Assembly: GCA_964582295.1 (NCBI GenBank)
Contig: CAZOQP010000002.1
Location: 8,563 to 72,562, forward strand
Source of the DNA: an uncultured Candidatus Saccharibacteria bacterium
GTDB taxonomy: Bacteria; Patescibacteriota; Minisyncoccia; Phycocordibacterales; Zambryskibacteraceae
Direction of reading: 5' to 3'
DNA: 64,000 nt
Shown: piece by piece, positions 2,800-52,816 of the stretch
Layout: each line of letters begins with the position of its first letter
Position numbering within the stretch: position 1 is the stretch's first letter
Notes under the pieces: generated by a model
The model's database searches: none
Seen by the model: only the letters and a program-made list of their open reading frames with translations
What the model was told of the DNA's origin: nothing
Translations under genes and position numbers: made by a program

Positions 2800-4587
2800 T
2801 TATCTCTCGGCTTTTGAGCGGCCTTGCTGAGAGAGGATTTTTTTGCGAAGTCGCACGGATTTCGGAGTAACTTCCATATATTCGTCGTCCTGCATTATTT
2901 CCATCACGCGTTCTATTGAAAGTTTCCATGCTGGCGCTAAAAATATTCCTTCGTCGGAGCCCGAAGCGCGCATGTTGGTCAATTGTTTTCCTTTTGTCGG
3001 GTTCACATACAAGTCTTCGCCTTTTGAAGTGTTGCCGATAACCTGACCTTCATAAACTTCGTCCGATGGTTCCATATACAAAGTTCCTCTCTGCTGAAGA
3101 TTGTCCAAAGAGAAAGCCAAGCACTTGCCGGGCATCATGGATATCATGGCGCCGACCGCCTGACGCTTTATTTCTCCGGCGTAGGCGCGGAATTCAATGA
3201 AGCGGGATGAAAGAATACCGAGGCCTTTGGTGTCTATGATGAATTGGCCGCGAAAACCAAGAAGTCCGCGCGTAGGCATTTCAAATGTGAGGCGTTCCGT
3301 GGTGCCGCCGTGTTCACTTTTTACATTCATAAGAGAGCCGCGCCTTTCTGTCAGTTTGCCGATTATGGTTCCAGACATTTCTTTTGGCACATCTATAACT
3401 ACTTCTTCAAAAGGTTCGAATTTTACTCCGTCACGCTCCTCGGTGATAACTTCCGGTTCCGAGACCTGCAATTCAAAACCCTCGCGGCGCATATTTTCAA
3501 GAAGGATGCCGATGTGAAGTTCTCCGCGACCAGAAACTTTAAAACGGTCGTTCTCTGAAAAATCCACCTTGAGCCCCACGTTTACCTCTAGCTCTTTTTC
3601 AAGTCGATCGCGTATCTGGCGGGAGGTTACAAACTTTCCTTCACGGCCGCCGAAAGGGGAATCGTTCACCAAAAAGAAAAGGGAAATGGTCGGCTCATCT
3701 ATTTTAATGGCAGGCAATTGAGCCGCATTCTCATCAGTGGAAATGCTTTCGCCGATGAAGATGTCTGGAATGCCGGCTATCATCACGATGTCGCCTTCGC
3801 CTGCGTCATTTGTTTCCAGCCGAGAGATGCCTTCAAATGTGAAAAGCTTGGTAATCTTTCCTTTACGGGTAACACCTTCCGGGTTTTTCACGAAAACATC
3901 CTGACCGGTCCTGAATATTCCTTTATGAATGCGGCAGATGGCCATGCGCCCCAGGAAATTGTCATAAGCCAGGTTGAACGGCTGAGCAATGCCCGCTTCC
4001 GTATTTTCTTTTCCGCCAGAGGGTTTTACTTCTTCAATAATAGTATCTAAAAGGGGAGTGAGGTCGTTTGAAGTGTCTTCCATTTTTCTTTTTGCCCAAC
4101 CTTCGCGCCCAACTGCAAAAAGAGTAGTGAAATTGCACTGATCGTCTGTGGCTCCAAGTTCCAGGAAAAGCTCCAACACTTCGTTCTCCACATCTTTTAT
4201 GCGGGCCGCCGGCTTGTCTATTTTATTTATGATGACTATCGGCTTGAGGCCGAGCTCAAGGGATTTTTTCAGTACGAAGCGGGTTTGAGGCATGGGGCCT
4301 TCCTGTGCATCAACAACCAAAAGCACAGTGTCTACCGCACGAAGCACGCGTTCCACTTCAGATCCGAAATCCTGGTGGCCCGGAGTATCTACGATGTTTA
4401 TTTTCGTGTCTTTGTAGCGGATGGAGCAGTTTTTGGAATAAATAGTAATACCGCGCTCTTTTTCTAGGGCGTTTGAGTCCATGGATGTGCCCTCGGCGAC
4501 AGCCCCCGTTTGCTTCAAAATAGCATCGGTAAGGGTGGTCTTTCCGTGGTCCACGTGCGCGATAATTGCAATATTTCTTATTTCCAT
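2800..4587 (-). CDS. typA: translational GTPase TypA/BipA
   Basis: G1 motif [15 protein letters not shown] and NKID motifs; ~596 aa with EF-G-like domain order. Start placed at [18 protein letters not shown] rather than the upstream extension of the ORF track. Confidence 0.9.
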
Positions 4588-4675: not shown

Positions 4676-4906
4676 ATGCCAACAGGAGATATTCTCACCA
4701 TTCCCAATGTTCCAGCCGAGATTATATCTGGAGGGCTGACAGGTTTCTTTATTTTATTTCTGGTTGGATATGCCGTAGTGGCAGCGGTTCTGGTTTACCA
4801 CTGGCAAAAATATGGAGGTAGGACTAGGAGGATATTCATAGTGGAGACTTTATTCATTACCGTCTCCGTTCTTTTCTCCGCTATCGCATTTTTCGCCATA
4901 CCATAA
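4676..4906 (+). CDS. small membrane protein (76 aa, two predicted TM helices)
   Basis: Hydrophobic segments GGLTGFFILFLVGYAVVAAVLV and LFITVSVLFSAIAFFAI. Promoter directly upstream. Confidence 0.4.
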   Translation: MPTGDILTIPNVPAEIISGGLTGFFILFLVGYAVVAAVLVYHWQKYGGRTRRIFIVETLFITVSVLFSAIAFFAIP

Positions 4907-4916
4907 AAGCCAAAAC

Positions 4917-5456
4917 ATGCTCAATCTTGATCCAAATGAAACGATAGTTCTCGAGGTGCATAGGCACTGGTATGTCCTCATGCCGCGCATGTGCCTCGTA
5001 TTTTTCCTTGCTATCGCTCCGGCTATCTTTTCGTCCGTCCTATCCGCGACAACTCCCGTCCATATCTCGGAGCTTCTTTTCTCAAGCAGTACTTTCATTT
5101 ACATGCTCTGGCTGTTGCTTCTCTGGATATCATTCTTCATTACCTGGACCAACTATTATCTTGATGTCTGGTTCGTAACCGAAAAACGCATAATATCTAT
5201 TGATCAGGTTAGTATTTTTCACCGCAGGATCTCGAACTTGCGTTTCGACAAGATCCAGGACGTTTCCATAGAGATGAAGGGCGTCATGCAGACCATGCTC
5301 AAATTCGGAGATATTCACATCAGGACAGCGGGTGATGCCAGTGAGAATTTCTTTTTCAAAAACGCGGAAAATCCAGATGATGTGAGACGTATAATCTTTG
5401 AACATCATGCTGATGCTCTAGATAATACCCGCTCTTCAACCGTTCGCACAGAATAA
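4917..5456 (+). CDS. membrane protein with bacterial PH-like domain (YdbT/DUF304-like)
   Basis: N-terminal MLNLDPNETIVLEVHRHWYVL followed by two TM segments and a C-terminal soluble domain (...FGDIHIRTAG...); pattern typical of bPH_2 proteins. Confidence 0.5.
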   Translation: MLNLDPNETIVLEVHRHWYVLMPRMCLVFFLAIAPAIFSSVLSATTPVHISELLFSSSTFIYMLWLLLLWISFFITWTNYYLDVWFVTEKRIISIDQVSIFHRRISNLRFDKIQDVSIEMKGVMQTMLKFGDIHIRTAGDASENFFFKNAENPDDVRRIIFEHHADALDNTRSSTVRTE

Positions 5457-6939: not shown

Positions 6940-6947
6940 TAAATAAC

Positions 6948-6976
6948 AAAACCCCCAGGATTATCCTGGGGGTTTT
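6948..6976. terminator. bidirectional intrinsic terminator hairpin between convergent genes
   Basis: aaaacccccagga-ttat-cctgggggtttt: perfect 13-bp stem flanked by an A-run and a T-run. Confidence 0.6.
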
Positions 6977-6981
6977 GTTAT

Positions 6982-7143
6982 TTATTCCTGCCGCGCTTCC
7001 TCCCTTGCGTGCTCCGTGTCATTCTTTGCGTCGTCGGCTTCTTTGCGTGCTGCCTCGGCCTCATCTTCTTTCTCGTCCGCTATCACTTCGCGCGCCGCTT
7101 GTATATCTTCTGTGGCCTCCTCTATATTATCTTTGTCTGCCAT
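6982..7143 (-). CDS. unannotated small highly acidic protein (53 aa, predicted helical)
   Basis: ATG at 7143 with GAGGAAG about 11 nt upstream; stop TAA at 6984-6982. Translation: MADKDNIEEATEDIQAAREVIADEKEDEAEAARKEADDAKNDTEHAREEARQE. Shorter than the 60-aa cutoff of the ORF track. The plus-strand ORFs listed here are antisense and low-complexity. Confidence 0.3.
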   Translation of the reverse strand: MADKDNIEEATEDIQAAREVIADEKEDEAEAARKEADDAKNDTEHAREEARQE

Positions 7144-7410: not shown

Positions 7411-8043
7411 TTACACCTCTTCATCAACTCCTACGAATTCCGTAAACACCACTATTCTTTCGTCGTACATTCTTTGTGCCGGCATCCAGTCTCCGGTGCA
7501 AGTAATGAGATTCAGATGCGTTCCGTCTGACGAGAATACTTCTGCAGGTGCATCCTCGTAATCGTAACTTTTCTTTTTGGTTACCTTGAATTGAAAGACC
7601 GTGCCGTCTTCATCCACTATCTTCACAATGTCTCCCTCCACGAGTTTTTCCAGGTCATAGAAGACCGCCCGGGGTGTATTCCTGCCGTCCAGGTGCCCCG
7701 CTAAGACGGCGCTACCTTGTTCTCCGGGTCTCGGCCCCTCTTTGTACCAGGCGACATCCGTGTAGTTGGTTGGTATTCCCATATCTCCGTCCGCGGTGAG
7801 GCCCACATGCTGTACTTTTGTGTCCACTCCTATTTTAGGAATGATGAGCCGGGCGGGGAGGCCGGGCTTCTCTTCGGGATCTATATAACGAGAAGCGAGG
7901 GGCGCTTGAGGCCCCTCGCTTGTCGTTGTGATCTCGCTCCAGCGTGCCTGAAGGATTATGCTTCCTCCGACAGCTGCTACACCGATTACCCCAAGGATGA
8001 GAAGCCGCGCCCAGGATGACTTCACTCTTGAGTATTTTATCAT
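7411..8043 (-). CDS. sortase family transpeptidase
   Basis: N-terminal TM anchor and the catalytic LITCTG (TLxTC) motif near the C-terminus. His in the LAGH context. 210 aa. Confidence 0.8.
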   Translation of the reverse strand: MIKYSRVKSSWARLLILGVIGVAAVGGSIILQARWSEITTTSEGPQAPLASRYIDPEEKPGLPARLIIPKIGVDTKVQHVGLTADGDMGIPTNYTDVAWYKEGPRPGEQGSAVLAGHLDGRNTPRAVFYDLEKLVEGDIVKIVDEDGTVFQFKVTKKKSYDYEDAPAEVFSSDGTHLNLITCTGDWMPAQRMYDERIVVFTEFVGVDEEV

Positions 8044-11652: not shown

Positions 11653-14295
11653 CTATGCGGGGCGGATCATGTGCTTGATCTGTGCCTTATCCGAATTACC
11701 TTGTCTGCTCCTAAAGAACCACTTTGCTATCTCTATCAGCCCAATGTTTAAGAGGCCGATCAATGCAACGCCGATCACCCAGATGACAGGTAACGCCACT
11801 GTGTTGAAAACCGTTTGCAGTCCGGGTAAATAGATGGCCAGGGCCATAAGAATAATCCCGACGAGGATACCGCCGTTAAGGTATTTGTTTGAGAACAGCG
11901 GATACGAAAAAATACTTCTGTCCAAACTTCGCACTGAAAGAGCAACCAGCAATGTGTATGTTCCGAACGCCGCAAAGATAAATGTGCGCACGATGGTCTC
12001 GTCGTAGCCGAGTCGCATCAGGGCGTAATAAACAACAAAGAGCAGGGCACTTGTGGAAATGCCAATAACAAGGATAAGGAATTTCATGACCGGATCGAAG
12101 AGTTTTATCTTGCCCCTGTTGAGTGGCTTGTGCGCGAGGCCGTCCGGTTCTTTCTCGAACGCATAAGACATGGCCGGAAAACTATCGGTAAAGAAATTCA
12201 CCCAAAGGATTTGCAGTGCATTAAGTGGTAATGGCAGTCCGGTCAAAAGTGATCCGCCAATAAGAATAAGGCCGTCGGTAACATTAGAGAGCAGGTATAC
12301 GAGCACCTTGCGGATGTTTCCGAGTATCTGCCTACCTTCCTCAATAGCCGCGACAATGGTCTCAAAATTATCATCCAGAAGCACCAAGTCAGCAACACTT
12401 TGTGCCACTTCCGTGCCTGAACCCATAGCTATGCCTACGTCGGCTTGTTTGATGCTTGGTGCGTCGTTTACTCCGTCGCCTGTCATAGCCACTACTTCTC
12501 CCATCTCTTGGTAAAGTTTGGCGATGCGAAGTTTGTCGAACGGCGTGACACGGGAAATAACAGAGAGTTCCGGCAGTCTTTCTCGCAGGGCTTCTTCGGA
12601 CATTTTTGCGAGTTCAGATGCATCTAGTACTGAATGATCACCAAGCTTCATGCCTATTTCTCGGGCAACAGCGAGAGCTGTTCCCCGATGGTCGCCGGTT
12701 AGGATAACTGTTTTAATTCCAGCGTAGCCAACTCTCTCTATGGCGTGCTTGATACCCGGCCGAATAGGATCACGGAATGTAATAAGTCCGTTCCATGATA
12801 GGTGAGATGGTGACAGGTCTTTTGAAAATGAAAAACTCTCTGTGTTAGTAATCTCTTTAGATGCAACGCCGAGGACTCTTTCTCCGGAGAGTGCCAGAGA
12901 ATCAATTTGCAGAAGCATCGCTTCTTTTTCTTTTGCGCCAAGCGATGAATGACCGAGCAGAATATCGGGCGCCCCAAAAAAGACGAGAAGATGTTTGCCC
13001 GATTCCTTGACTAAGGATGCAGAGAATTTTTGTACCGCATTAAACGGCATGCTTTGAAGAACGTGCTCTTTGGCAGTGATATCGGCAAACGTCATTCCTC
13101 TAAGGCCGGCCGAACGAACGAGAGCGGTCTCCATGATCCTGCCATTCATGTGCCACGATTCCGGATCGTCATGCGGATTTTCAATGAGGACATTTGCGTT
13201 CGTCAAAGCTCTATCGAAAAGCTTTTGCTCACTCAACTCAAAAGGGATGATCTTTGACAGCACCATCTTAGCCATCGTCAAGGTTCCGGTTTTATCGGTG
13301 AGTATGATAGTGGCACTACCGAGAGCTTCGGCCGCAACGAGTTTGCGTACTACACCTTTTCGCTTCGCCATTCTCTCCACGCCGACAGCAAGGATAACCG
13401 TCATGGAGATTGGCAGTCCTTCAGGAATAGCAGATACAGCAATAGCAACGGAAGTGAGAAACATCTCAAAACCGGAGTATCCAGCAAGGATACCGATGCC
13501 AAATACAATAAAGGTCAAAACACCGAGTGCGATACTTGAATAGATACTGAAGTTTATGATGGCCTTCTGAAGCGGAGTTTTTTCGTTCTCGGAGATAGCG
13601 ATGAGCGAAGCGATCTTGCCGAGCTCGGTGTTTGAATCTGTACGGCAGACTATGGCGGCACACACTCCTTGGGTGACAAGAGTTCCGGCAAAGATCATGG
13701 AATTCTGATCCGAGAGCCCGGCTGATTCAGGCGATTTATCTGTTGATTTTGATACAGGTAAAGATTCACCGGTAAGCACCGCTTCGTCTACCTGGAAGTC
13801 GTTAATAAACATAACCCGAGCATCCGCTGGTACACGGTCGCCTTGTGCTAGTCGGATGATGTCGCCGGGAACAAGCTCTTCCGCATCAATTTCCCGTTCT
13901 TTGCCATCCCGAATAACTCGTGCTCTTTGTTTGAGGTAGGTTTTAAGTTCCGAAAGCGCACGTTCCGCTTTATTCTCCTGATAGAAGCCCAAGAGGGAAT
14001 TGACGATAACTGCAATGAAAATAAAGGTTGCATCACGGTAGTGCGAAATAGAGAGTGTAATGATACCGGCAACAATAAGAACAAGGATGAGAGGGCTTTT
14101 TAACTGATTTAGAAATATTTTTAATCCAACCGCTTTTTTGGAAGTACTGATAGTATTTTTCCCAAAAACAGAAAGGCGATCCTTAACCTCTTGTGAGGAT
14201 AATCCTTTTTCTGCATCTGTTTCAAATAACCGTGCAGTTTCTTCGGATGATAGATGCCAGAAGTTTTTGTTTTGTATTTGCGTATTTATAAGCAT
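11653..14295 (-). CDS. P-type cation-transporting ATPase (P2-type, Ca2+/Mg2+-like)
   Basis: DKTGTLT phosphorylation motif, the TGDGVNDAPSIKQADVGIAMG hinge motif, ~10 TM segments, 880 aa. Confidence 0.9.
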   Translation of the reverse strand: MLINTQIQNKNFWHLSSEETARLFETDAEKGLSSQEVKDRLSVFGKNTISTSKKAVGLKIFLNQLKSPLILVLIVAGIITLSISHYRDATFIFIAVIVNSLLGFYQENKAERALSELKTYLKQRARVIRDGKEREIDAEELVPGDIIRLAQGDRVPADARVMFINDFQVDEAVLTGESLPVSKSTDKSPESAGLSDQNSMIFAGTLVTQGVCAAIVCRTDSNTELGKIASLIAISENEKTPLQKAIINFSIYSSIALGVLTFIVFGIGILAGYSGFEMFLTSVAIAVSAIPEGLPISMTVILAVGVERMAKRKGVVRKLVAAEALGSATIILTDKTGTLTMAKMVLSKIIPFELSEQKLFDRALTNANVLIENPHDDPESWHMNGRIMETALVRSAGLRGMTFADITAKEHVLQSMPFNAVQKFSASLVKESGKHLLVFFGAPDILLGHSSLGAKEKEAMLLQIDSLALSGERVLGVASKEITNTESFSFSKDLSPSHLSWNGLITFRDPIRPGIKHAIERVGYAGIKTVILTGDHRGTALAVAREIGMKLGDHSVLDASELAKMSEEALRERLPELSVISRVTPFDKLRIAKLYQEMGEVVAMTGDGVNDAPSIKQADVGIAMGSGTEVAQSVADLVLLDDNFETIVAAIEEGRQILGNIRKVLVYLLSNVTDGLILIGGSLLTGLPLPLNALQILWVNFFTDSFPAMSYAFEKEPDGLAHKPLNRGKIKLFDPVMKFLILVIGISTSALLFVVYYALMRLGYDETIVRTFIFAAFGTYTLLVALSVRSLDRSIFSYPLFSNKYLNGGILVGIILMALAIYLPGLQTVFNTVALPVIWVIGVALIGLLNIGLIEIAKWFFRSRQGNSDKAQIKHMIRPA

Positions 14296-18180: not shown

Positions 18181-18591
18181 ATGAAATATTCATCATATGT
18201 GAAGGGGATGGAGAATACGCCGGCCATAGAAGCTTATTTAGATAAACGTTTGAAAGCGCTCCGGAAAGTGGTGAAGGATCCGGCGGCGCATGCGCAGGTG
18301 GAGATAGGGAAGACTACAAATCATCACAAGTCGGGAGACATTTTCCGGGCGGAAATAAAATTGATGATGTCCGGCAAGGAATTTTATGCGGCAGTGGAAA
18401 AGGATGACCTTTACGCGGCCATAGATGAAATGAGGGACGAGATAATCGCGGAGGTTAAAAAATTCAAAGGAAAATCTGAAACAGCTTTTCGTCGCGGCGC
18501 ACGAAGAATGAAAAGTATTTTGAAAGGGCTTGATCCTCGAGATTACAACTACAAGGATTGGAAGTTTTGGGAGAAGTGGCGGAGGAAATAA
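18181..18591 (+). CDS. hpf: ribosome hibernation promoting factor (HPF/RaiA family, long form)
   Basis: ...AIEAYLDKRLKALRKVV...DIFRAEIKLMMSGKEFYAAVEKDDLYAAIDEMRDEI... matches the sigma-54-modulation/S30AE fold signature. Confidence 0.8.
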   Translation: MKYSSYVKGMENTPAIEAYLDKRLKALRKVVKDPAAHAQVEIGKTTNHHKSGDIFRAEIKLMMSGKEFYAAVEKDDLYAAIDEMRDEIIAEVKKFKGKSETAFRRGARRMKSILKGLDPRDYNYKDWKFWEKWRRK

Positions 18592-18595
18592 AAAG

Positions 18596-18737
18596 TCGCT
18601 CGGGGTGTTTCTTGAAAATGAAAAGTACGCACTCGAACACGAAAAGAGACCACTCCGGGGCGTTTGCCCAAGTCTTAGTCTCTTTTCGTGTTCGAGTGCT
18701 TTACTCAAAAAACATTTTCAGGAAACACCCCTCGCTC
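18596..18737. repeat. intergenic palindromic repeat element, family member A (142 bp, bounded by TCGCTC hexamers)
   Basis: Starts 5 nt after the hpf stop. Outer arms gggtgtttcttgaaaatg / cattttcaggaaacaccc; inner perfect 22-bp arms gcactcgaacacgaaaagagac / gtctcttttcgtgttcgagtgc. Shares GAAAAG..GTACGCA with members B and D. Confidence 0.7.
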
Positions 18738-18764
18738 CTAAGTTGAGAAAAAATATAAACAAAG

Positions 18765-18806
18765 AGGCCGCGCGACGGATGTCGCGCGGCCTTACTGTTT
18801 TTTTTA
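18765..18806. terminator. intrinsic terminator (bidirectional)
   Basis: aggccgcgcgac-ggat-gtcgcgcggcct followed by tactgtttttttt. Confidence 0.6.
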
Positions 18807-19274
18807 TCCTATTTTCAATTGAACTCTCTCCTCTTTGCTCAATCTACTCTCCATTAGCTCGGCCGCAGTTTGAGCGAGCTCCGGGTTCCTTGCAATGACA
18901 GCTGCAAAGCGGATTTCAGCCCAACCTCTTTGGAGTTTGCACGTGAAGTAAAAGATGAGGGTTTCTTTATGCTCTGAAGGCAGTACTTCCTCAGGCAACC
19001 GCCCGACTTCCTCCATGAGAATATGTACACCCTCGAGAGCAGTTGCAAGTAGTGGTGGATGCATATTCGCAATTACTTGCTCAAACACGAGGTTGAGACT
19101 GAGCAGGTGTTTCCGATGACGCGGATCTGCCAGGTTCTTCCAAGCTTCAAGCGCTCTGATCAGATCTTCTGAGTCGCGGTTTACCACTCCATGCCTCCGT
19201 CGGCAAAAAGTGAATGTTCGGTTCCTTGAATGTTGTAGCACCCTTTCTCTCAAATCACAACTACATAACTCCAC
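18804..19274 (-). CDS. hypothetical protein (156 aa)
   Basis: Intact ORF starting 14 nt inside the 3' end of fmt. No recognisable motif. Confidence 0.35.
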   Translation of the reverse strand: MELCSCDLRERVLQHSRNRTFTFCRRRHGVVNRDSEDLIRALEAWKNLADPRHRKHLLSLNLVFEQVIANMHPPLLATALEGVHILMEEVGRLPEEVLPSEHKETLIFYFTCKLQRGWAEIRFAAVIARNPELAQTAAELMESRLSKEERVQLKIG

Positions 19275-22668: not shown

Positions 22669-23682
22669 ATGGCCTTTTTTACCAAAAAACTAGGTATTGA
22701 TCTCGGCACTACGAGCGTTCTTGTGTATGTGCCGGGAAAGGGGATTATCTTGAATGAACCGTCTGTTGTGGCCGTGTCTGAAGAGGACAGGAAAATTTTG
22801 GCGATAGGTGCGGAGGCAAAAAAAATGATAGGCAAGACGCCTGAAAACATCATTGCTTATCGCCCGATGAAAGACGGAGTCATTGCGGATTATCGTGTGA
22901 CGGAAGCCATGCTCCGATATTTTATCGGCAAAGCTCTCGGTAAATTTTCATTCATAAAGCCGGATGTTTTGATATCCGTTCCCGCTGGTGTTACCTCAAC
23001 TGAAAGGCGGGCTGTCATTGAAGCGGCTGTGAAAGCGGGGGCAAAGAACGCATATGTTGTGAAAGAGCCGATCCTTGCGGCTATCGGCGCAGGTATTCCC
23101 ATTCAGGAGCCGTCGGGCCAAATGATAGTTGATATTGGCGGAGGGACGACCGACGTGGCGGTTATTTCGCTCGGCGGCATCGTGGCTTCTACGTCGGTTA
23201 AGTGTGCTGGCAATAAGATAGATGCAGCTATCACCGACCATATGAAGAAAACTTATAATCTGGCGATTGGTGATCGCACGGCGGAAAATATAAAAATAAA
23301 TATCGGCTCTGCTGTGCCGGTGGAGGAGGAACTTTCAATGCAGGTGAAAGGAAGGGATTACGTTTCGGGTTTGCCCCGCTCGGTTGAAGTGAAAACAAAT
23401 GAGGTGGTGAAGGCCATTGGGAAAGAGCTTCGCGATATGGTGAAAGCTATAAAGGATGTGCTGCAGGAAACTCCGCCAGAACTCGCTTCAGACATTATTG
23501 ATAAAGGAATAGTTATGACAGGCGGCACTTCCCAGCTTCGCCATTTGCCCGAACTCGTTTTTCGCCGCACCGGAGTGAAAGCGGTGATGGCAAAGGATGC
23601 TTTGTATTGTGTGGTGAATGGGACGGGTATAGCACTAGAGCATTTGGATGCTTATAAGAAGGCGGTGATTTCTAAAAGATAA
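22669..23682 (+). CDS. actin-like rod-shape protein, MreB family (paralogue 1, 337 aa)
   Basis: LGIDLGTTSVLVYV, NEPSVVAV, DIGGGTTDVAVISLGGIV motifs. Confidence 0.8.
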   Translation: MAFFTKKLGIDLGTTSVLVYVPGKGIILNEPSVVAVSEEDRKILAIGAEAKKMIGKTPENIIAYRPMKDGVIADYRVTEAMLRYFIGKALGKFSFIKPDVLISVPAGVTSTERRAVIEAAVKAGAKNAYVVKEPILAAIGAGIPIQEPSGQMIVDIGGGTTDVAVISLGGIVASTSVKCAGNKIDAAITDHMKKTYNLAIGDRTAENIKINIGSAVPVEEELSMQVKGRDYVSGLPRSVEVKTNEVVKAIGKELRDMVKAIKDVLQETPPELASDIIDKGIVMTGGTSQLRHLPELVFRRTGVKAVMAKDALYCVVNGTGIALEHLDAYKKAVISKR

Positions 23683-23685
23683 TTT

Positions 23686-23791
23686 TCGCTCGGGGTGATG
23701 ACGAAAAGAGTACGCATAAAAATCTGCTGATTTTTTGCTCACCCTCGCGCCGTCGCGCTGCACAGCCTCTTTTCGTCATCACTCCTCGCTC
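23686..23791. repeat. intergenic palindromic repeat element, family member B (106 bp, TCGCTC-bounded)
   Basis: Starts 4 nt after the mreB-like stop. 19-bp arms gggtgatgacgaaaagag / ctcttttcgtcatcactcc. 105/106 identical to the reverse complement of member C at 32213-32318. Confidence 0.75.
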
Positions 23792-23856
23792 TGAAGTAAA
23801 AGTCGGCTCGCTTCAAAGAAAAAACAATCAATTTGTAAAAAGGGTAAAATGGGGGA

Positions 23857-25087: not shown

Positions 25088-25106
25088 GATTTTATAAATA
25101 GCCATT

Positions 25107-25175
25107 ACAAAGGTTTATCCTTTGGCAAAGGATAAACCTTTGTACGTAGGACAGTCCTACGTAGATTTTGATTTT
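25107..25175 (+). promoter_or_regulatory. two consecutive perfect palindromes between the DUF457 gene and frr (candidate operator and/or terminator)
   Basis: acaaaggtttatcctttg-g-caaaggataaacctttgt (18-bp perfect arms), then acgtaggac-a-gtcctacgt, then gattttgattttt. Confidence 0.3.
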
Positions 25176-30265: not shown

Positions 30266-32002
30266 ATGAGGTTTTCCTTCAAAAATTTATTCAAAAAGCG
30301 TGGTCCCGGCCACGAAATTGCTCCGGAAGAAATATTGGCGGACGCTTCAAACCTCATCCATACAGACACCGGTAACATGGAGGGACACCTTATTCTTCCT
30401 ATAGAAAGGTCCTCATACGTTCTCCTTGTTGCTGTTCTTGTGTTTTTGACCCTCTTTGCGACAGTGCGCCTTTTTAATCTTCAGGTAGTGCGCGGGCAGG
30501 AGCTCGCTAAAAGGAGCGCCACCAACTCTTTGGATAAAACGATTGTCTTTGCGAACCGCGGGCTTATTTTTGACAGAACAGGTGAAGTGGTGGCAGGAAA
30601 TGCACCAGCTCAAAGATGGAGTGAAAGAAAATATTTGCCTCTCCCCGGTCTTTCGGTTATGGTCGGATATGTGGGATATCCGAAATCAGATTCAAGCGGC
30701 AATTTATACGACACAGCACTTGCCGGACGCGATGGGCTTGAAGAATATTTTGATGATGTACTTGCCGGAAGGAACGGCACTCTCATACGCGAAACAAATG
30801 CTTTGGGGGAGCTTGTTTCTGAAAGCACTGTGGAGAATCCGCGTGATGGGGTGAACATTACTCTCTCAATAGATGCGAAAGTTACCAGCCAGCTTTTCAC
30901 AGAACTCAAGGCACTTGCGGAGGAAAGAGGGTACGCGGGCGGAGCTGGTATTGTGATTGATATAGAGACCGGAGAAGTACTCGCTCTCACTTCATATCCT
31001 GAATACGACCACCAGGTGATGGTAGATGGAAAAGATAACAATGCCATTTCGGCATTTCTCGGGAATAAGAATAATCCTTTCCTTGACCGTGCATCCCAGG
31101 GTCTTTACATCCCGGGTTCTATCATGAAGCCCTACATGGCAGTAGGTGCGCTTGAGGAGAATATTGTTGATCCGCTTAAAAATTTCATGGCGAACGGAGA
31201 GATACGTGTTCCTAATCCTTATGATCCTAAGAACCCGACTATTTTCAAAGACTGGAAAGTGCACGGAATGGTTGATATGCGGAGGGCGCTTGCTGTTTCT
31301 TCAAACGTTTATTTTTTCACAATTGGTGCCGGCTATGAGGGGCAGAGGGGATTAGGTATTTCCAAGATAGAAGAATATATGCGCATGTTCGGATTCGGAG
31401 AAAAAACTGGTATTGAAATAGATGGAGAGGAAGAGGGTAACGTGCCGAGCCCCGAATGGAAGGAGGAAACTTTTCCGGATGATACTACCTGGCGCCTCGG
31501 AGATACTTACAATAGTTCTATCGGGCAATACGGATTTTCGATAACACCCATTCAGGCCGTACGGGCGACAGCGGCCCTCGCGAACGGCGGGTTTTTAGTG
31601 ACACCTACTCTTATAAAAGATGACGAGCAAAATCAGGATCTCCAAAAAGTGCTTTCCCAAAAAGGGGTGGAGTTAAAAAGAGAAAAAGAAACTGTTCCTG
31701 TGGCCCGTGAAAATATTCGCATAGTGCAGGAGGGAATGAGAAAGGCCGTGCTTGAGGGAACCGCTTCCGGATTGAATATTCCTGCCGTCGCCGTGGCCGC
31801 CAAGACGGGTACTGCAGAGCTTGGTGTTACCAAGCAGGCCGTCAACTCATGGGTTATGGGATATTTCCCTTATCAAAATCCGCGTTATGCATTTGCTATT
31901 GCCATGGAAAAGGGGAGCCGCTCAAACACTGTGGGTGCCACTTATGCCATGCGCCGCCTTCTTGAATGGATGGCTATTTATGCGCCGGAATATTTAAAAT
32001 AA
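30266..32002 (+). CDS. mrdA: penicillin-binding protein 2 (class B transpeptidase)
   Basis: SxxK (GSIMKP), SxN (SSNVYF) and KTGTA motifs. Start at MRFSF (30266); the longer ORF from 30020 overlaps mreD out of frame. Confidence 0.85.
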   Translation: MRFSFKNLFKKRGPGHEIAPEEILADASNLIHTDTGNMEGHLILPIERSSYVLLVAVLVFLTLFATVRLFNLQVVRGQELAKRSATNSLDKTIVFANRGLIFDRTGEVVAGNAPAQRWSERKYLPLPGLSVMVGYVGYPKSDSSGNLYDTALAGRDGLEEYFDDVLAGRNGTLIRETNALGELVSESTVENPRDGVNITLSIDAKVTSQLFTELKALAEERGYAGGAGIVIDIETGEVLALTSYPEYDHQVMVDGKDNNAISAFLGNKNNPFLDRASQGLYIPGSIMKPYMAVGALEENIVDPLKNFMANGEIRVPNPYDPKNPTIFKDWKVHGMVDMRRALAVSSNVYFFTIGAGYEGQRGLGISKIEEYMRMFGFGEKTGIEIDGEEEGNVPSPEWKEETFPDDTTWRLGDTYNSSIGQYGFSITPIQAVRATAALANGGFLVTPTLIKDDEQNQDLQKVLSQKGVELKREKETVPVARENIRIVQEGMRKAVLEGTASGLNIPAVAVAAKTGTAELGVTKQAVNSWVMGYFPYQNPRYAFAIAMEKGSRSNTVGATYAMRRLLEWMAIYAPEYLK

Positions 32003-32006
32003 AAAG

Positions 32007-32194
32007 TCGCTCAGATAACACCCTTTTTCAAACAGCTGCCGCTCCGGCGGTTACGAAATCATAGTCGTCTCATAACGTAAAATGGGCAACTCGTCGGCAC
32101 AATCCGCCTCCTCAAACACTCCCATTTTCCTACTCAACTCCTTGATTTCTAAAACCACCTCCCGCTTGTGTGAAAAAGGGTATTATCTTCGCTC
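32007..32194. repeat. intergenic palindromic repeat element, family member C1 (188 bp, TCGCTC-bounded)
   Basis: Starts 4 nt after the mrdA stop. Terminal arms agataacaccctttttcaaacag / ctt(g)tgtgaaaaagggtattatct. Starts aaaagtcgctc like member A. Confidence 0.6.
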
Positions 32195-32212: not shown

Positions 32213-32318
32213 GAGCGAGGGGTGATGACGAAAAGAGGCTGTGCAGCGCGACGGCGCGAGGGTGAGCAAAAAATCAGCAGATTTTTATGCGTACTCTTTT
32301 CGTCATCACCCCGAGCGA
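32213..32318. repeat. intergenic palindromic repeat element, family member C (inverted copy of B; GAGCGA-bounded)
   Basis: 105/106 identical to the reverse complement of 23686-23791. Flanks outside the hexamers are unrelated between the two copies. Lies 18 nt after member C1. Confidence 0.75.
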
Positions 32319-32399
32319 CTACTGTTTGAAAAATGCTGCATTTTGAGCGGTCTTCATTGACAGGACGCCCCTTTACTCTATAATGCCGAGGAATTAAAT

Positions 32400-46324: not shown

Positions 46325-46597
46325 ATGACGAATCAAGAAACATTTTTCACTCGCTCGGTTATAAAAGTCGTAAAATCGATTCCTAAAGGCAAAACACTTT
46401 CATATGGAGAGGTCGCTCGTCGCGCGGGTAATCCAGGTGCGGCGAGAGCCGTGGGAAGCATTATGAAAAATAATCACGATAAAAAAGTTCCGTGTCATCG
46501 TGTGATACATTCAGACGGCAGGGTGGGGGATTACAACGGTGGCGGAGAAAAACAAAAGCGCGCACTTCTCGTGAAAGAAGGCGCGCTTACCGGTTGA
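46325..46597 (+). CDS. methylated-DNA--protein-cysteine methyltransferase, stand-alone C-terminal (catalytic, DNA-binding) domain
   Basis: PCHRV active-site motif (..KKVPCHRVIHSDGRVGDY..) in a 90-aa protein. Confidence 0.7.
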   Translation: MTNQETFFTRSVIKVVKSIPKGKTLSYGEVARRAGNPGAARAVGSIMKNNHDKKVPCHRVIHSDGRVGDYNGGGEKQKRALLVKEGALTG

Positions 46598-47359: not shown

Positions 47360-50107
47360 GTGAGAATGGAAACAGCTCCTACAAAAGAGCGGATGCTCGT
47401 GGCTGAAGAAGAGCTTGCGTATTTGCGCGGGCAATTTGAAAAGCAAAAACAAGAGAATATTTCTTCCGCAAAAATGGGAGACGAAAAAACTCTCTCTCAT
47501 GCAGTAGTGCGTTCCTATGCGGAAGCTCACCCGAGAGAACTTTGGGGTGCTGGGCACACTGCGGCTGAAACAGTAATTGCGGGGCTAGCTTTAAAGATCG
47601 CGCCTGAACCTCATGATGTTCGCATGGAAGAGCTTTACAGGGTTATTCAGACGAAAGGAATATACACAGCTCTTAAGGTGGTAGAGAAAATGAATGACCC
47701 TCATTTGGAGGACGATTTCCACCGCTTCGTGGCTGAGCTTGTGCGTGGAGCACATGGCGTAAAGGGACTAAAGGAAAAAACAGAGCTTTCCCGTTCTGTA
47801 TCGCGAGTACTTTTTGAGATATCCCTTTCACGGAATAAAGATGAAGGAGATAAGGGGGGCTCTGGGCAGGGGCTTCGCGAGCTTGTCTCAAAAATGGAGA
47901 GCATTTATGCCATTCTTCAGGGTCATGAGAAAGACAGGGAAACTATAGTTTTGGAACTTGCAAATTCTGCGGGAAATTCGGAACTGGTTTTTTATGCGGC
48001 GGTTCCCGGAACATGGGCAAACCGTTTTGAAAATGAGATACGTACTGTATATCCGGAAGCGCGGGTGAACGAACGACCGGATGATTACAATGTTTTTGCT
48101 CAAGGCGGCCACATCGCGCTTTCATCTGCAAAGCTCTCTCGTTCTGCAGCTTTGCCGCTTAAAACATTTGAGACTTTTGAGCACGACCCCATGAATCTCC
48201 TAATTGGTGCTTTCGGAAAACTTCATCATGAAAATGAAGGGGCATTAGTTCAGATAGTGGTGGGCGCAGCTTCATCTTCTTTTGAAAAAACAGTGCGAGG
48301 TAAAAAAAGTGCCATAGAAAAAGGTGCTGACCCGAAGGAAGTGCTTGCCGAAAGGGGAGTATTAAGTGAGATATTCGGCATGTTCGGAGATATGTTCAAA
48401 AATTCGGGTGGAAAAAAGAAAGAGGAGAAAGAAAGTTCACTTCAAAAACATGCAGCAGTTCTACAAAAACTTGAGAGTAAATTGGCAAGGCCTATAAGCA
48501 CTGTGTGGATGCGCGTCGCGGCATCCGCCGCGACGCGCGAGCGCGCGGAAGCCATTGGACGCGACATTGAATCCTCTTTCAGACAATTCAGCGAACCCAC
48601 AGGCAATGAAATAATTTTCAAAAAAGTGCGCCCAAGGGAAATGCGCCGCGCCGTGAGGGCCATTTCCTTTCGGTTGCCGTCTTTTGGCGACGCTTTGTAT
48701 TTGAACACTGCTGAACTTGCAACCATTTTCCATTTTGAAAGCGCCGGCCTTACAGCATCCCCAACCCTCAAAACAGCGCAGTCTGTTTCCCATGCCGCAC
48801 CCCTTGATGTTCCAAAAGAGGGAATACTTATGGGGGTGAACGGAACGGCCCCCGATCAGAAAGAAATTTTCCTTGCAGACACAGATCGCCTGCGCCATTT
48901 GTATGTCATAGGCCAGACAGGAACCGGAAAATCAACGCTTCTTAAAAACATAGTTATTCAGGATGTGGAGCGCGGTCATGGCGTGTGCTTCATAGACCCG
49001 CATGGTTCGGATATTGAAGAAATACTTTCCCGTATTCCGCCTGAACGCCAAAAAGATGTCATTTATTTTGACCCAGCCAATCTTGAATATCCGATAGCCC
49101 TCAACATGCTTGAATACGATGCACGTTTTCCTGAACAAAAAACTTTCGTAGTGAACGAGCTCTTCGCAATATTCCAGAAATTGTACGGAGCTGTCCCTGA
49201 ATCAATGGGGCCCATGTTTGAGCAGTATTTCAGGAATGCTACTCTGCTTACTATTGAAGATCCTGAATCCGGCTCAACACTTCTTCATGTGTCACGAGTG
49301 CTTGCAGACAAGGCGTATCGCGAACATAAACTATCCAGATGCAAAAACCCAGTAGTGGTTTCTTTCTGGAAGGAAATAGCTGCAAAAGCGGGAGGGGAGG
49401 CCTCACTTGCGAATATCGTTCCCTATATCACTTCTAAATTTGATGTCTTCCTTGCGAACGACTATATGCGCCCTATCATCTCTCAAGAAAAGTCGTCTCT
49501 TCGTTTCCGCGAGATAATAGATGAAAAGAAAATTCTTTTAGTGAACCTTTCCAAGGGCCGCCTGGGCGAGATAAATAGCAATCTTCTTGGTCTTATTATC
49601 GTTGGCAAACTTCTGATGGCCGCTCTTTCACGTGTTGACGTTTCAGCAGATACGCGAAATCCTTTCCATTTGGTGATAGATGAATTCCAGAATGTTACGA
49701 CAGATTCCCTAGCGACTATTTTTTCCGAGGCCAGGAAATACGCGCTGTCTCTTACAGTCGCACATCAATACATCGCCCAACTGACGGAAAATATCAGCAA
49801 AGCGGTTTTTGGCAACGTGGGAACACTGGCGATCTTCCGAGTAGGCACGGATGATGCAGAGTATTTGGAAAAACAATTATCTCCGGCTTTTGGGGCGGCA
49901 GACCTGGCGAATCTTCCGAACGGCATGGCGGCATTGAAAATATTAGCGAACGGCATACCCCTTCCGCCTTTTGATATTCATACCTTCGGATTTGCGAAAG
50001 GGAATAGCGACGGGCAGGCGCTCAAAGAAGCATCTGCACATAAATATGGCACTCCACGAGAGGAGGTTGATAAGATCATAAACTCGTCTTTCACCCCTGC
50101 TTCTTAA
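47360..50107 (+). CDS. large soluble P-loop NTPase of the FtsK/HerA/TraG-VirD4-VirB4 superfamily with an unrecognised ~500-aa N-terminal region
   Basis: Walker A YVIGQTGTGKSTLL at about residue 520, CFIDPHG, Walker B HLVIDEFQNV, then ...SLTVAHQYIAQL... No TM segments. N-terminal half has no motif I can assign. Confidence 0.6.
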   Translation: MRMETAPTKERMLVAEEELAYLRGQFEKQKQENISSAKMGDEKTLSHAVVRSYAEAHPRELWGAGHTAAETVIAGLALKIAPEPHDVRMEELYRVIQTKGIYTALKVVEKMNDPHLEDDFHRFVAELVRGAHGVKGLKEKTELSRSVSRVLFEISLSRNKDEGDKGGSGQGLRELVSKMESIYAILQGHEKDRETIVLELANSAGNSELVFYAAVPGTWANRFENEIRTVYPEARVNERPDDYNVFAQGGHIALSSAKLSRSAALPLKTFETFEHDPMNLLIGAFGKLHHENEGALVQIVVGAASSSFEKTVRGKKSAIEKGADPKEVLAERGVLSEIFGMFGDMFKNSGGKKKEEKESSLQKHAAVLQKLESKLARPISTVWMRVAASAATRERAEAIGRDIESSFRQFSEPTGNEIIFKKVRPREMRRAVRAISFRLPSFGDALYLNTAELATIFHFESAGLTASPTLKTAQSVSHAAPLDVPKEGILMGVNGTAPDQKEIFLADTDRLRHLYVIGQTGTGKSTLLKNIVIQDVERGHGVCFIDPHGSDIEEILSRIPPERQKDVIYFDPANLEYPIALNMLEYDARFPEQKTFVVNELFAIFQKLYGAVPESMGPMFEQYFRNATLLTIEDPESGSTLLHVSRVLADKAYREHKLSRCKNPVVVSFWKEIAAKAGGEASLANIVPYITSKFDVFLANDYMRPIISQEKSSLRFREIIDEKKILLVNLSKGRLGEINSNLLGLIIVGKLLMAALSRVDVSADTRNPFHLVIDEFQNVTTDSLATIFSEARKYALSLTVAHQYIAQLTENISKAVFGNVGTLAIFRVGTDDAEYLEKQLSPAFGAADLANLPNGMAALKILANGIPLPPFDIHTFGFAKGNSDGQALKEASAHKYGTPREEVDKIINSSFTPAS

Positions 50108-50112
50108 AGAAT

Positions 50113-50150
50113 TGTGTCATTCCAACATTCTCAAGAATGTTGGAATGACA
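50113..50150. repeat. perfect 18-bp-arm palindrome immediately after the ATPase stop codon
   Basis: gtgtcattccaacattct-ca-agaatgttggaatgacac. No T-run on the plus strand. Confidence 0.5.
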
Positions 50151-50160
50151 CTTGTATACA

Positions 50161-51112: not shown

Positions 51113-52156
51113 ATGACGACGCTTCTTATTACGCTCGTGGGACTAATGCTTCTCATTCAGCTCGCGGTTTTTTGGCGAATGTCGCAAGGAAAAAAAGATG
51201 CGGGGCCGGAGGGGTTGATGCTTCTTCAAAACCAGCTTTCCCATCTCACTAAATCTATAGATGAACGCCTTTCCGATTCTGCCCGCACGATGTTTGACAC
51301 AGTGGAAAAGCAGACCGACCAATCCATGAAAATAATCCGTGATGTAACGGAGCGCTTGACGAAGATAGATGAGACAAGTAAGCAGTTCACATCTTTTGCC
51401 GCGCAACTTCAGGACCTGCAGGATGTTCTGAAGAACCCGAAGCAGAGGGGGATTTTAGGGGAATATTATCTGGAAACTCTTTTGAAAAATGTTCTGCCAC
51501 CAGATGGATATGCCATGCAGTACGCTTTCAAGGACGGCACGGTGGTTGATGCGGCGGTTTTCGTGAAGGAAAGGATAATTCCTGTTGACTCAAAATTTTC
51601 GCTCGACAACTACCGCAGGGTGCTTGAGGAAAAGGACGAAAACCGCCGCAAGGAGCTTGAAAAACTTTTTGTGAACGATCTCAAGCTTCGCATCAGCGAA
51701 ACTGCAAAATACATAAAGCCGGCCGAAGGCACCATGGATTTTGCTTTCATGTTTATTCCACATGAAGCTATTTATTACGATCTCCTGGTGAATAAAGTGG
51801 GGGAGATAACAGAAGAAACAGAAAATCTCATAGAACGGGCAGCGCGCAAATATCACGTTATCATCGTCTCGCCGACATCATTCCTTGCATACCTTCAGAC
51901 CGTTCTTCAGGGATTACGCTCGCTTCAGGTGGAGGAGACGGCGAAAGAGATAATAAAAAATGTGGACGATTTGCGGAAGCACCTTGCGGCTTATTCCGAA
52001 TATCACAACAAGCTCGGAGTAGCTTTGGGAACTGTGGTGAACCACTACGGAAAATCCTCAAGCGAGTTCAAAAAGATAGACAAGGACGTTTTGCGTATTA
52101 CCGAAGAGCGTATAGGTATTACTTTGCCTGAAATAGAAAGGCCGGAAGTGGAGTAA
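51113..52156 (+). CDS. rmuC: DNA recombination protein RmuC
   Basis: N-terminal TM, long coiled coil, and the C-terminal RmuC nuclease-like domain (..FMFIPHEAIYYDLL..). Confidence 0.75.
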   Translation: MTTLLITLVGLMLLIQLAVFWRMSQGKKDAGPEGLMLLQNQLSHLTKSIDERLSDSARTMFDTVEKQTDQSMKIIRDVTERLTKIDETSKQFTSFAAQLQDLQDVLKNPKQRGILGEYYLETLLKNVLPPDGYAMQYAFKDGTVVDAAVFVKERIIPVDSKFSLDNYRRVLEEKDENRRKELEKLFVNDLKLRISETAKYIKPAEGTMDFAFMFIPHEAIYYDLLVNKVGEITEETENLIERAARKYHVIIVSPTSFLAYLQTVLQGLRSLQVEETAKEIIKNVDDLRKHLAAYSEYHNKLGVALGTVVNHYGKSSSEFKKIDKDVLRITEERIGITLPEIERPEVE

Positions 52157-52160
52157 GAAG

Positions 52161-52267
52161 GCGCTCGGCGTGTTGCCGAAAAGGGTACGCATAAAAATCT
52201 GCTGATTTTTTGCTCACTCTCAAACCGTCGTTTTCCGAGAGCCCCTTTTCGGCAGCACCCCTCGCTT
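52161..52267. repeat. intergenic palindromic repeat element, family member D (about 107 bp, CGCTC/TCGCT-bounded)
   Basis: Starts 5 nt after the rmuC stop. The central 35 nt (gtacgcataaaaatctgctgattttttgctcac) are identical to member B. The arms differ from B but remain mutually complementary (ggcgtgttgccgaaaaggg / cccttttcggcagcacccc). Confidence 0.7.
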
Positions 52268-52359
52268 CAAATCAAAGATACGTACAGTACCCTAAATCTG
52301 CCATAAGTGGCGGATTGAGGGGTTGTTTTTATGGGGGATTTGTGTAGAATAATCGTCCT

Positions 52360-52731: not shown

Positions 52732-52816
52732 TAGTCTCCATAAATGCATAATCCCCAACCGAAGTAGGGGATTATGCATTTATATTAACGACAGAACTCT
52801 CTTTTTCTTACAATCA

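Follow-up and report, generated by a model that had tools for sequence, protein, structure and literature searches.

Repetitive extragenic palindromic (REP) units are imperfect palindromes of 20 to 40 nt that carry a GTAG or CGTC tag, and a REPIN consists of two such units in inverted orientation (PMC3733652, PMC3116915). The DNA analyzed here is a 64,000-nt stretch (the window) of contig CAZOQP010000002.1, from an uncultured bacterium of the Minisyncoccia within the Patescibacteria, or Candidate Phyla Radiation (CPR), and it contains five hairpin-forming elements (A, B, C1, C, and D) bounded by the hexamer TCGCTC or a one-mismatch variant, which in their working are most like REPINs and the Correia- or ERIC-type miniature inverted-repeat transposable elements (MITEs). 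Correia-type and other MITE-type repeats are 100 to 160 bp long, have terminal inverted repeats of about 20 to 26 bp and no open reading frame (ORF), and are dispersed between genes; their hairpins are cotranscribed with neighboring genes, with RNase III cleavage or changed mRNA stability as possible outcomes. The Correia elements of Neisseria (CREE) insert at TA and duplicate it. The palindrome-associated transposable elements (PATEs) of the IS200/IS605 type move by strand-specific "peel and paste," using hairpins and short single-stranded motifs, and insert beside a fixed 4- to 5-nt motif, similar to the one at their other end, without duplication. Integron attC sites, such as the Vibrio cholerae repeats, are imperfect hairpins of 60 to 140 nt that lie right after ORF stops and are recombined as a folded single strand, and the Rickettsia palindromic elements are selfish hairpin repeats of 100 to 150 bp that proliferated in a reduced genome, typically in frame inside genes. 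The genomes of CPR bacteria are very small, and few repeats and little mobile DNA are thought to occur in them. No REP-, MITE-, or Correia-like repeat family was found described in the literature on Patescibacteria or the CPR, and the repeat family reported here is previously undescribed, with no Rfam family or publication found for it. We read it as a small nonautonomous hairpin-forming mobile repeat that would be mobilized in trans and would have multiplied recently in this genome, and we put the probability of this reading at about 0.5.

A scan of a genome collection for the two ends of the element (80 of the 84 matching stretches were listed, and the window's own genome lies outside the collection) added a copy in another genus. 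The five window elements and this copy are as follows, with scores, where given, from covariance model R1.

18596..18737, plus strand: element A, 142 nt, a diverged member of the family, with hexamers at 18596-18601 and 18732-18737.
23686..23791, plus strand: element B, 106 nt, with hexamers at 23686-23691 and 23786-23791 (127.6 bits).
32007..32194, plus strand: element C1, 188 nt, with hexamers at 32007-32012 and 32189-32194.
32213..32318, minus strand: element C, 106 nt, inverted, with its left hexamer at 32318-32313 and its right hexamer at 32218-32213 (131.4 bits).
52161..52267, plus strand: element D, 107 nt, a separate subfamily, with GCGCTC at 52161-52166 and TCGCTT at 52262-52267 (134.8 bits).
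L009 4585-4691, Minisyncoccia metagenome-assembled genome GCA_049304335.1, another genus: the true homologue among the matches listed.

The first-pass annotation had described five hairpins framed by TCGCTC with differing bodies. The frame is exact on the element strand at both ends of A, B, C1, and C (C reads GAGCGA on the plus strand), and in D each hexamer has one mismatch. All five do form long hairpins that are far more stable than shuffled sequence (z-scores of -6 to -15), and the inverted arms of A, B, C, D, and the L009 copy are 19 bp long and 89 to 100% complementary, those of C1 being about 25 bp at 81%. The claim of differing bodies, however, is wrong for B, C, and D. B and C, which lie 8.4 kb apart in inverted orientation, agree at 105 of 106 positions, and the identity between B and D is 81%, so that these three form one repeat family. 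A is a diverged relative with about 55% identity to the other copies, having kept the hexamers at both ends, the outermost 6 bp of its stem, the GAAAAG-TAC-GCA block, the closing TGC, and the TGCT..CTCA motif. Only the body of C1 is unrelated; C1 resembles the others in its hexamers and in its immediate outer flanks, which are those of A (TAA-AAAG on the left and C(T)TAAG on the right), and its membership in the core family is uncertain. Within the window, R1 recovers B, C, D, and A and nothing more, A scoring 44 bits through its ends only. As in MITEs, the elements have terminal inverted repeats, are 106 to 188 nt long, contain no transposase ORF, and occur in five copies in 64 kb on both strands.

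B, C, D, and the L009 copy align readily and support a three-way junction. On one strand, the unit reads (T/G)CGCTC, a 19-bp stem (P1, GGGGTG...CACCCC) enclosing the junction, and then TCGCT(C/T). P1 is followed by UAC, P2, UCAC, P3, and a single C before P1 closes, P2 being made up of GCA, a bulged U, 7 bp, the loop UGCU, and a closing UGC. The unpaired positions are nearly invariant in the order GUAC, GCA-U-(P2 hairpin)-UGC, UCAC, P3 hairpin, and C. Across these four copies, 96% of the cells in paired columns are paired and 13 of the 38 pairs show double-sided changes, values that were reached by none of 500 shuffles and approached by no slid register, and RNAalifold independently recovers the same helices; conservation of structure across copies, on which the first-pass annotation had staked the family, is thus strongly borne out. 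Variable columns make up 32 of the 76 paired and 3 of the 30 unpaired columns, hexamers included (Fisher P = 0.0013), and in all lineages P2 is closed by GCA/TGC, around four different stems.

In B, P1 is formed by 23692-23710 and 23767-23785, and the junction TAC (23711-23713) is followed by P2 (23714-23738, with GCA, a bulged T, 7 bp, and the loop TGCT), TCA(C) (23739-23741), and P3 (23742-23765). The P1 arms of C are 32294-32312 and 32219-32237. D has P1 at 52167-52185 and 52243-52261, the same P2 as B, and a P3 in which CTCTC/GAGAG forms the outer and AAAC/GTTT the inner stem. A reads TCGCTC, GGGGTG..., ...CACCCC, TCGCTC, with its outer stem P1 formed by 18602-18620 and 18713-18731 and the conserved junction GTAC-GCA starting at 18625; its inner stem is long and perfect (22 bp, 18629-18650 with 18678-18699), is closed by GCA/TGC, and is followed by TTTACTCA. 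A lacks P3, and its 142-nt hairpin has a folding energy of -80.5 kcal/mol (z = -14.8). In C1, the arms 32013-32034 and 32167-32188 (about 81% complementary) are unrelated to those of the other copies, and the body folds poorly and has no GTACGCA core.

No Rfam 15 family, self-cleaving ribozymes included, lies at or near its gathering threshold in the elements, the only passes in the window being two tRNAs, and the best matches of D in E-value mode are plant microRNA models with E > 2. The sequence GUGAUGA...GAAA in B suggested hammerhead and box C/D readings, which were rejected since these bases are paired and are not conserved in D, the L009 copy, or the more distant homologue described below (L109). 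The TIGR stem-loop arrays of CPR organisms, which belong to the box C/D guide RNAs, are tandem units with box C (RUGAUGA) and box D (CUGA) in loops beside a Tas gene (PMC12045711). The present copies are instead dispersed, with GUGAUGA only in B and C, where it is fully paired in P1, and no Nop-domain match was found among the approximately 58 window ORFs in Pfam or NCBIfam scans.

Four of the five elements start 3 to 4 nt after a TAA stop: A 4 nt past hpf (TAA at 18589-18591), B 3 nt past mreB (23680-23682), C1 4 nt past mrdA (32000-32002), and D 4 nt past rmuC (52154-52156) and 92 nt upstream of rplU. The position after a stop, which the first-pass annotation had claimed for all five, thus holds for these four and fails for the inverted C, which lies 18 nt from C1, 210 nt past the mrdA stop, and 81 nt upstream of greA, with no adjoining stop codon. 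The assignments of hpf, mreB, mrdA, and rmuC that it had made hold (RmuC, Pfam E = 1.8e-50), as do those of greA and L21 (rplU) as flanking genes. Calculated from the 9,060 nt of intergenic DNA in the window and its approximately 65 genes, with two post-stop positions each, the probability that four of five copies lie just behind a stop by chance is about 1e-8. In all six copies, L009 included, a stop-like triplet lies 0 to 4 nt left of the left hexamer, and in four of six a TAA occurs at offset -1 to +2 right of the right hexamer, against a background of 0.08 (P of about 5e-4). TA or TAA flanks both sides in four or five of the six copies, B having no clean duplication, and TA(A) is for this reason proposed only tentatively as a target; insertion at TA or TAA with duplication may regenerate the stop codon. 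MreB and MrdA end at the same residue as the proteins of relatives, which indicates that the left TAA is the native stop codon.

The elements share with REP/REPIN sequences and their transposase RAYT that they are extragenic, multicopy, and hairpin forming and often lie just after genes (PMC3116915, PMC3733652). The likeness extends to a hairpin maintained by compensatory changes, a conserved single-stranded tag at its foot, and persistence in the lineage, REP units being mobilized in trans by a single-copy enzyme. In contrast to REP, the arm GGGGTGATGACGAAAAGAG is not self-complementary, the ends bear no GTAG or CGTC tag, no doublet of inverted REPs is present, CGCTC lies on the same strand at both feet, and a three-way junction with conserved loops makes up the interior; the window (64 kb) plus flanks showed no RAYT gene. 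The TA duplication of Correia elements matches the possible TA(A) flanks, whereas the 6-nt end block is direct rather than inverted and is better conserved than the inverted repeats, the copies nearly always lie 3 to 4 nt behind a stop, and the host belongs to the CPR. IS200/IS605 elements are expected to have constant motifs on the same strand at their two ends, as is observed here, but those elements have two separate subterminal hairpins and no terminal inverted repeat, whereas a single hairpin is formed here from both ends. A constant same-strand CGCTC on the left side of each copy is compatible with IS200/IS605 insertion, and the covariation of both hexamers with the subfamily speaks against it; no TnpA or TnpB gene was found among the approximately 58 window ORFs. 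Recognition of a folded single strand, as in REP/RAYT or IS200/IS605, would by this comparison be the most likely mechanism here. attC sites likewise have a variable and sometimes branched apical structure and can be highly similar within one chromosome; in contrast to them, the present elements have no RYYYAAC/GTTRRRY core sites, their ends being (T/G)CGCTCGGGGTG and CACCCCTCGCT(C/T), they form no array, have no intI, and include one inverted copy, and their neighbors hpf, mreB, mrdA, rmuC, and murJ are core housekeeping genes rather than promoterless cassettes, with a synteny kept across four related genomes. Unlike the Rickettsia palindromic elements, all copies are extragenic. Bacterial MITEs comparable to the Correia elements include ERIC/IRU and RUP; the review PMC3184786 was drawn on for this comparison.

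Beyond the window, homologues of two types were found in other genera, both right after a murJ stop. The L009 copy lies 3 nt after the TAA of a murJ-like gene that is convergent with lepA; given this position, it is not orthologous to any window copy, and it is 73 to 78% identical to the window family. The matches listed from the genome collection lie nearly all in G+C-rich genomes and include two CPR records, L009 and L027, the latter rejected as a chance match. Relatives of the L009 genome were compared at the murJ-lepA site. In L109, L110, and L111 (MurJ 84% identical), a diverged homologue directly follows the murJ stop; it has a different P1, G-UAAUAUUCUCCGGCGAAC paired with GUUCGGCGGAGAAUAUUA-C, in which the stop codon itself is paired, the core GC-GCA-U-AAAUUCGCC-AGC-GGCGAAUUU-UGC-UAUGCUCAG, a long P3, and no CGCTC hexamers. 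At the murJ-lepA site of L112 (82%), L114 (76%), and L113 (71%), no family member is present. In four related genomes, R1 found no copy over 136 kb of syntenic DNA, and with filters off it returned generic hairpins only, being blind to the diverged L109 type. The spacer between mrdA and greA, which holds C1 and C in the window and is 397 nt long, measures 44 to 47 nt in L100 and L103, and in other relatives a DoxX gene follows mrdA. MAFFT could not structurally align A and L109, and a generalized structural scan (GCA, P2, and TGC inside a P1 of at least 18 pairs) was therefore used; in approximately 420 kb of Minisyncoccia DNA it detected only A, B, C, D, L009, and L109. A metagenome scan with the P2 core gave 11 chance matches and no homologue, viral-contig scans gave one chance match and then none, and BLAST searches of phages and plasmids gave nothing real. 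An outward walk of about 8 kb in the same organism met no additional copy, which leaves five copies in approximately 72 kb overall. From these sequences, the family is judged to be old, sparse, and patchy in relatives and expanded in this genome.

Several observations support mobility: near-identical copies occupy loci that have nothing to do with one another and occur in both orientations, relatives differ at the murJ-lepA site, a remnant lies beside B, and C is nested between C1-type arms. The last two concern the following features.

23797..23817, plus strand: remnant of a D-type copy that lacks the hairpin, lying 5 nt downstream of B and reading TAAAAG-TCGG-CTCGCTTCAAA.
32319..32349, plus strand: second, diverged copy of the C1 right arm, complementary to the C1 left arm, including CGCTCA/TGAGCG.

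The final 11 nt of the remnant (CTCGCTTCAAA) are identical to the right end of D plus its flank (52261-52271), including 4 nt beyond the hexamer, and this 11-mer occurs exactly at only two sites in the window, the right end of D and 16 nt after B. Beside B it is preceded by TAAAAGTCGG, and the first part of the remnant resembles the left flank of A and C1 (TAAAAAG-TCGCTCGG); the whole looks like the scar of a D-type copy that has no hairpin. The complement of the C1 left arm extends over 40 nt (32008-32047 against 32310-32349, 75% complementary), and the position of C between two C1-type right arms suggests a history of nested or tandem insertion.

The alternative that survives best, although we consider it unlikely, is a cis-acting RNA of the 3' untranslated region (UTR) that is selected by the host, in which a host protein or nuclease would bind the three-way junction through its loops, the junction itself, and the UCGCUC flanks. 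Such an RNA would control mRNA 3'-end stability or processing or act on the terminating ribosome, and its copies would come from occasional duplication and be kept by selection. The conservation of loops, junction, and hexamers while the stems covary is what this explanation predicts, and five of the six copies are sense to the upstream gene and start 0 to 4 nt past its TAA. The pairing of the stop codon within P1 of the L109 type, the persistence of homologues in at least three genera, and the presence of other hairpins directly behind stops in this genome, which would make the position a functional niche, agree with it too. However, C is a 99% identical antisense copy that is not behind a gene, the genes concerned (hpf, mreB, mrdA, rmuC, and murJ) have no common function, the element is missing behind the same genes in related genomes, and the remnant and nested copies indicate turnover. 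The strand on which an RNA would act is not favored either: G-U and A-C mismatches (approximately 4 versus 2, counted by eye) and the folding energies, which are equal on both strands, proved uninformative when tried for choosing it.

The hexamers bear on a second alternative, which we regard as improbable, a classical MITE moved by a DDE transposase acting on double-stranded terminal repeats, with TCGCTC as a 6-bp duplication of a preferred target. In A, B, and C (19-bp repeats) and in C1, the terminal inverted repeats are directly flanked by identical hexamers, and C1 has a different body between the same hexamers, as this explanation would have it. Over the whole window, TCGCTC is at chance frequency (40 matches against 36 +/- 5.5 expected), and no free TAA-N3-4-TCGCTC target sites were seen there, yet of the 13 occurrences between genes, 8 coincide exactly with the boundaries of four of these hairpins. 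A scan for CGCT(C/T), a stem, and TCGCT(C/T) in the window and five related loci found only the five elements and one homologue in another genome. D and the nonorthologous L009 copy from another genus share the unequal pair GCGCTC/TCGCTT, which cosegregates with the CTCTC/GAGAG outer P3 of their subfamily, and the right end of D with its 4 flanking nt recurs in the remnant; the hexamers therefore travel with the element. Moreover, the hexamer is not palindromic, and its strand is that of the asymmetric interior in all six copies, which is unexpected for a symmetric transposase, and the L109 homologue has no hexamers at all. For these reasons, of the two origins that had been offered for the hexamer, a target duplication or part of the element ends, the latter is favored, with the hexamers appearing to lie subterminally within the element. 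Outside the hexamers, B and C do not resemble each other, which indicates that the moved unit spans from hexamer to hexamer, give or take a base.

That the elements are ordinary independent 3' hairpins (factor-independent or -dependent terminators or mRNA stabilizers) alike by convergence is very improbable and, for B, C, D, and the L009 copy, effectively refuted by the sequence comparison, for although unique long hairpins without T-tracts lie behind other genes (25106-25144, 50114-50151, and 52740-52783) and L098 and L100 have hairpins of other sequence at the post-mreB position, identities of 99% (B/C), 81% (B/D), and 73 to 78% (across genera) reflect homology rather than convergence, no element has a U-tract, a real terminator follows A, and B, C1/C, and D lie inside codirectional gene strings, where termination is not obviously wanted.

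Both of the observations on termination had been made at the outset: no T-tract follows any element, and a canonical terminator stands after A. The terminator or mRNA-stabilizing role suggested there is possible; to be set beside it are the missing U-tracts, the separate terminator of A, and the antisense lie of C relative to its neighbors. A terminator scan calls none of the five elements and does call the following one.

18764..18803, plus strand: bidirectional canonical intrinsic terminator between hpf/A and the convergent gene at 18804-19274, not a member of the family.

Hairpins directly behind stops seem to be the norm in this genome. Perfect, long, unique palindromes without T-tracts lie at 6940-6984, 25106-25144, 50114-50151, and 52740-52783 (arms of 22, 19, 18, and 20 bp and loops of 1 to 4 nt), the last three beginning 6 to 18 nt past a stop codon, and a short-read contig of the same organism (L106) starts inside the one at 25106-25144. 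In L098, a related Minisyncoccia genome, one hairpin follows mreB and two to three lie between greA and lysS; those at 3287-3356 and 12870-12938 have the same 25-nt loop, CACGGAGAGATATACCGCGCTCCTA, and the same top 6 bp on unrelated perfect 16-bp outer stems, with degenerate units near 12800-12860 and 12950-13000, which suggests a small element inserting into the tips of existing palindromes or another process by which stems are built from local sequence. Behind mreB in L100, the hairpin at 3286-3362 ends in ...ATTCTCGCTCTAAGTT; a run of 12 nt, TCGCTCTAAGTT, is common to it and to the right end plus flank of C, and its interior is unrelated. A short hairpin within the sortase gene (7887-7927 in 7411-8043, minus strand; AGCGAGGGGC...GCCCCTCGCT) carries the 10-mer CCCCTCGCTT of the right ends of D and L009, either by chance (about 0.1 expected) or as a fragment.

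In the mobile-repeat reading that we prefer, an enzyme whose gene lies at another place in the genome would copy or move the unit, recognizing a folded single strand by the hairpin foot, the CGCTC motifs that flank it on the same strand, the junction, and the loops. Under such recognition, compensatory changes can accumulate in the stems, whereas unpaired bases and hexamers are held constant; fixed unpaired bases with covarying stems, together with direct same-strand motifs at the feet, are a poor fit to a transposase that binds double-stranded terminal repeats. The hexamers would be subterminal parts of the element. The element may insert at TA or TAA and duplicate it, the upstream stop then serving as the left target copy and staying intact, and stop-sparing insertion combined with selection in a very compact genome would account for the placement 3 to 4 nt after TAA. 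Once inserted, the element would be cotranscribed with the upstream gene as a 3'-UTR stem-loop, and the 19-bp P1, about 10 nt past the stop, might act as an RNase III substrate or a barrier to 3' exonucleases, probably as a side effect rather than as its raison d'etre.

Several points weigh against this reading. In Pfam or NCBIfam scans, none of the approximately 58 window ORFs proved to encode a transposase, an integrase, or an HUH protein (single-strand DNA nuclease). With MrdA identities of only 64 to 69%, even the nearest relatives offer no truly empty site that would show an insertion event directly. The edges of B (TTT on the left and TGA on the right) show no clear duplication. The copies number only six or seven from about four lineages, and the identity between genera (73 to 78%) is little above the genome background, so that vertical persistence without mobility in the other lineages has to be reckoned with. 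Stems that covary around fixed loops are not predicted by neutral MITE decay, and invariant loops with covarying stems, together with five of six copies lying sense at a stop, fit a selected cis-acting RNA equally well.

The closest matches of the window's MrdA are proteins of Minisyncoccia/Patescibacteria, at 64 to 69% identity apart from a 100% match in the Logan assembly of SRR6868922, which is the same sample as the window. Short-read Logan contigs from this sample terminate within A, C1, and D and at some of the perfect palindromes. No convincing promoter was detected inside the elements in a promoter scan, and greA has its own perfect promoter, downstream of C. On the minus strand, the C1 body (32035-32166) contains a 24-codon ORF, MGVFEEADCADELPILRYETTMIS, with AAGGAG upstream, and a promoter-like site (TCGTCA-18-TATAAT, 32231 to 32202), which may be a chance occurrence, faces it from the edge of C. 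Some relatives have a DoxX gene between mrdA and greA; the C1 body, which might be a remnant of this gene, was compared with it, and no similarity was found.

The cumulative GC skew has its minimum near 20 kb (window, approximately 17 to 23 kb), where the skew switches, and at about 22.6 kb the genes, until there mostly on the minus strand, become mostly plus-strand; a replication origin region could lie here, and A is close by. A replication-linked orientation bias of the elements was considered on the basis of the GC skew and set aside, the copies being too few for a test. A large relative of the TraG/VirD4 coupling-protein family (47360-50107; TraG-D_C and AAA domains) lies in a conserved neighborhood with a small MGMT-like DNA-binding gene (46325-46597), an arrangement also found in L103. 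The gltX ORF as listed (62732-63898) lacks the N-terminal part of the catalytic domain, its Pfam match beginning at profile position 135, and the gltX product of the Logan contig has 462 amino acids, which points to a real start upstream of the listed ORF or to a frame problem in the window. In the relatives, the murJ-lepA spacer (L009, approximately 4830-4990; L112, approximately 2900-3090; L113, approximately 11990-12120) contains a conserved, structured-looking stretch that ends in a terminator and probably encodes a small RNA. The genome that carries the L009 homologue also has a second family of hairpin repeats (L009 6781-6913 and L104 6106-6228), whose arms read (G)TAGTGAAAAATGGC....

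Taken together, the elements look like miniature mobile elements and not like an essential gene-control signal. If they are simply another MITE family, they make a modest addition to the catalogue. There is a small chance that they represent either a new type of mobile hairpin recognized as a single strand, a CPR counterpart of REPIN-RAYT in which the CGCTC feet and the junction would determine recognition and cleavage by its enzyme and which would home to TAA, leaving the host gene its stop, or a novel class of 3'-UTR RNA of the Minisyncoccia bound by a host factor. What distinguishes the family is that a strictly conserved motif on the same strand at both feet is combined with a three-way junction that covaries, with persistence in several genera, and with insertion just behind stops. 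In practical terms, these repeats and the neighboring perfect palindromes break short-read assemblies of such genomes. For the biology of these bacteria, the family offers a tractable case for asking by what means small selfish hairpins spread and persist where genomes are extremely compact, and whether they are turned into 3'-UTR signals.

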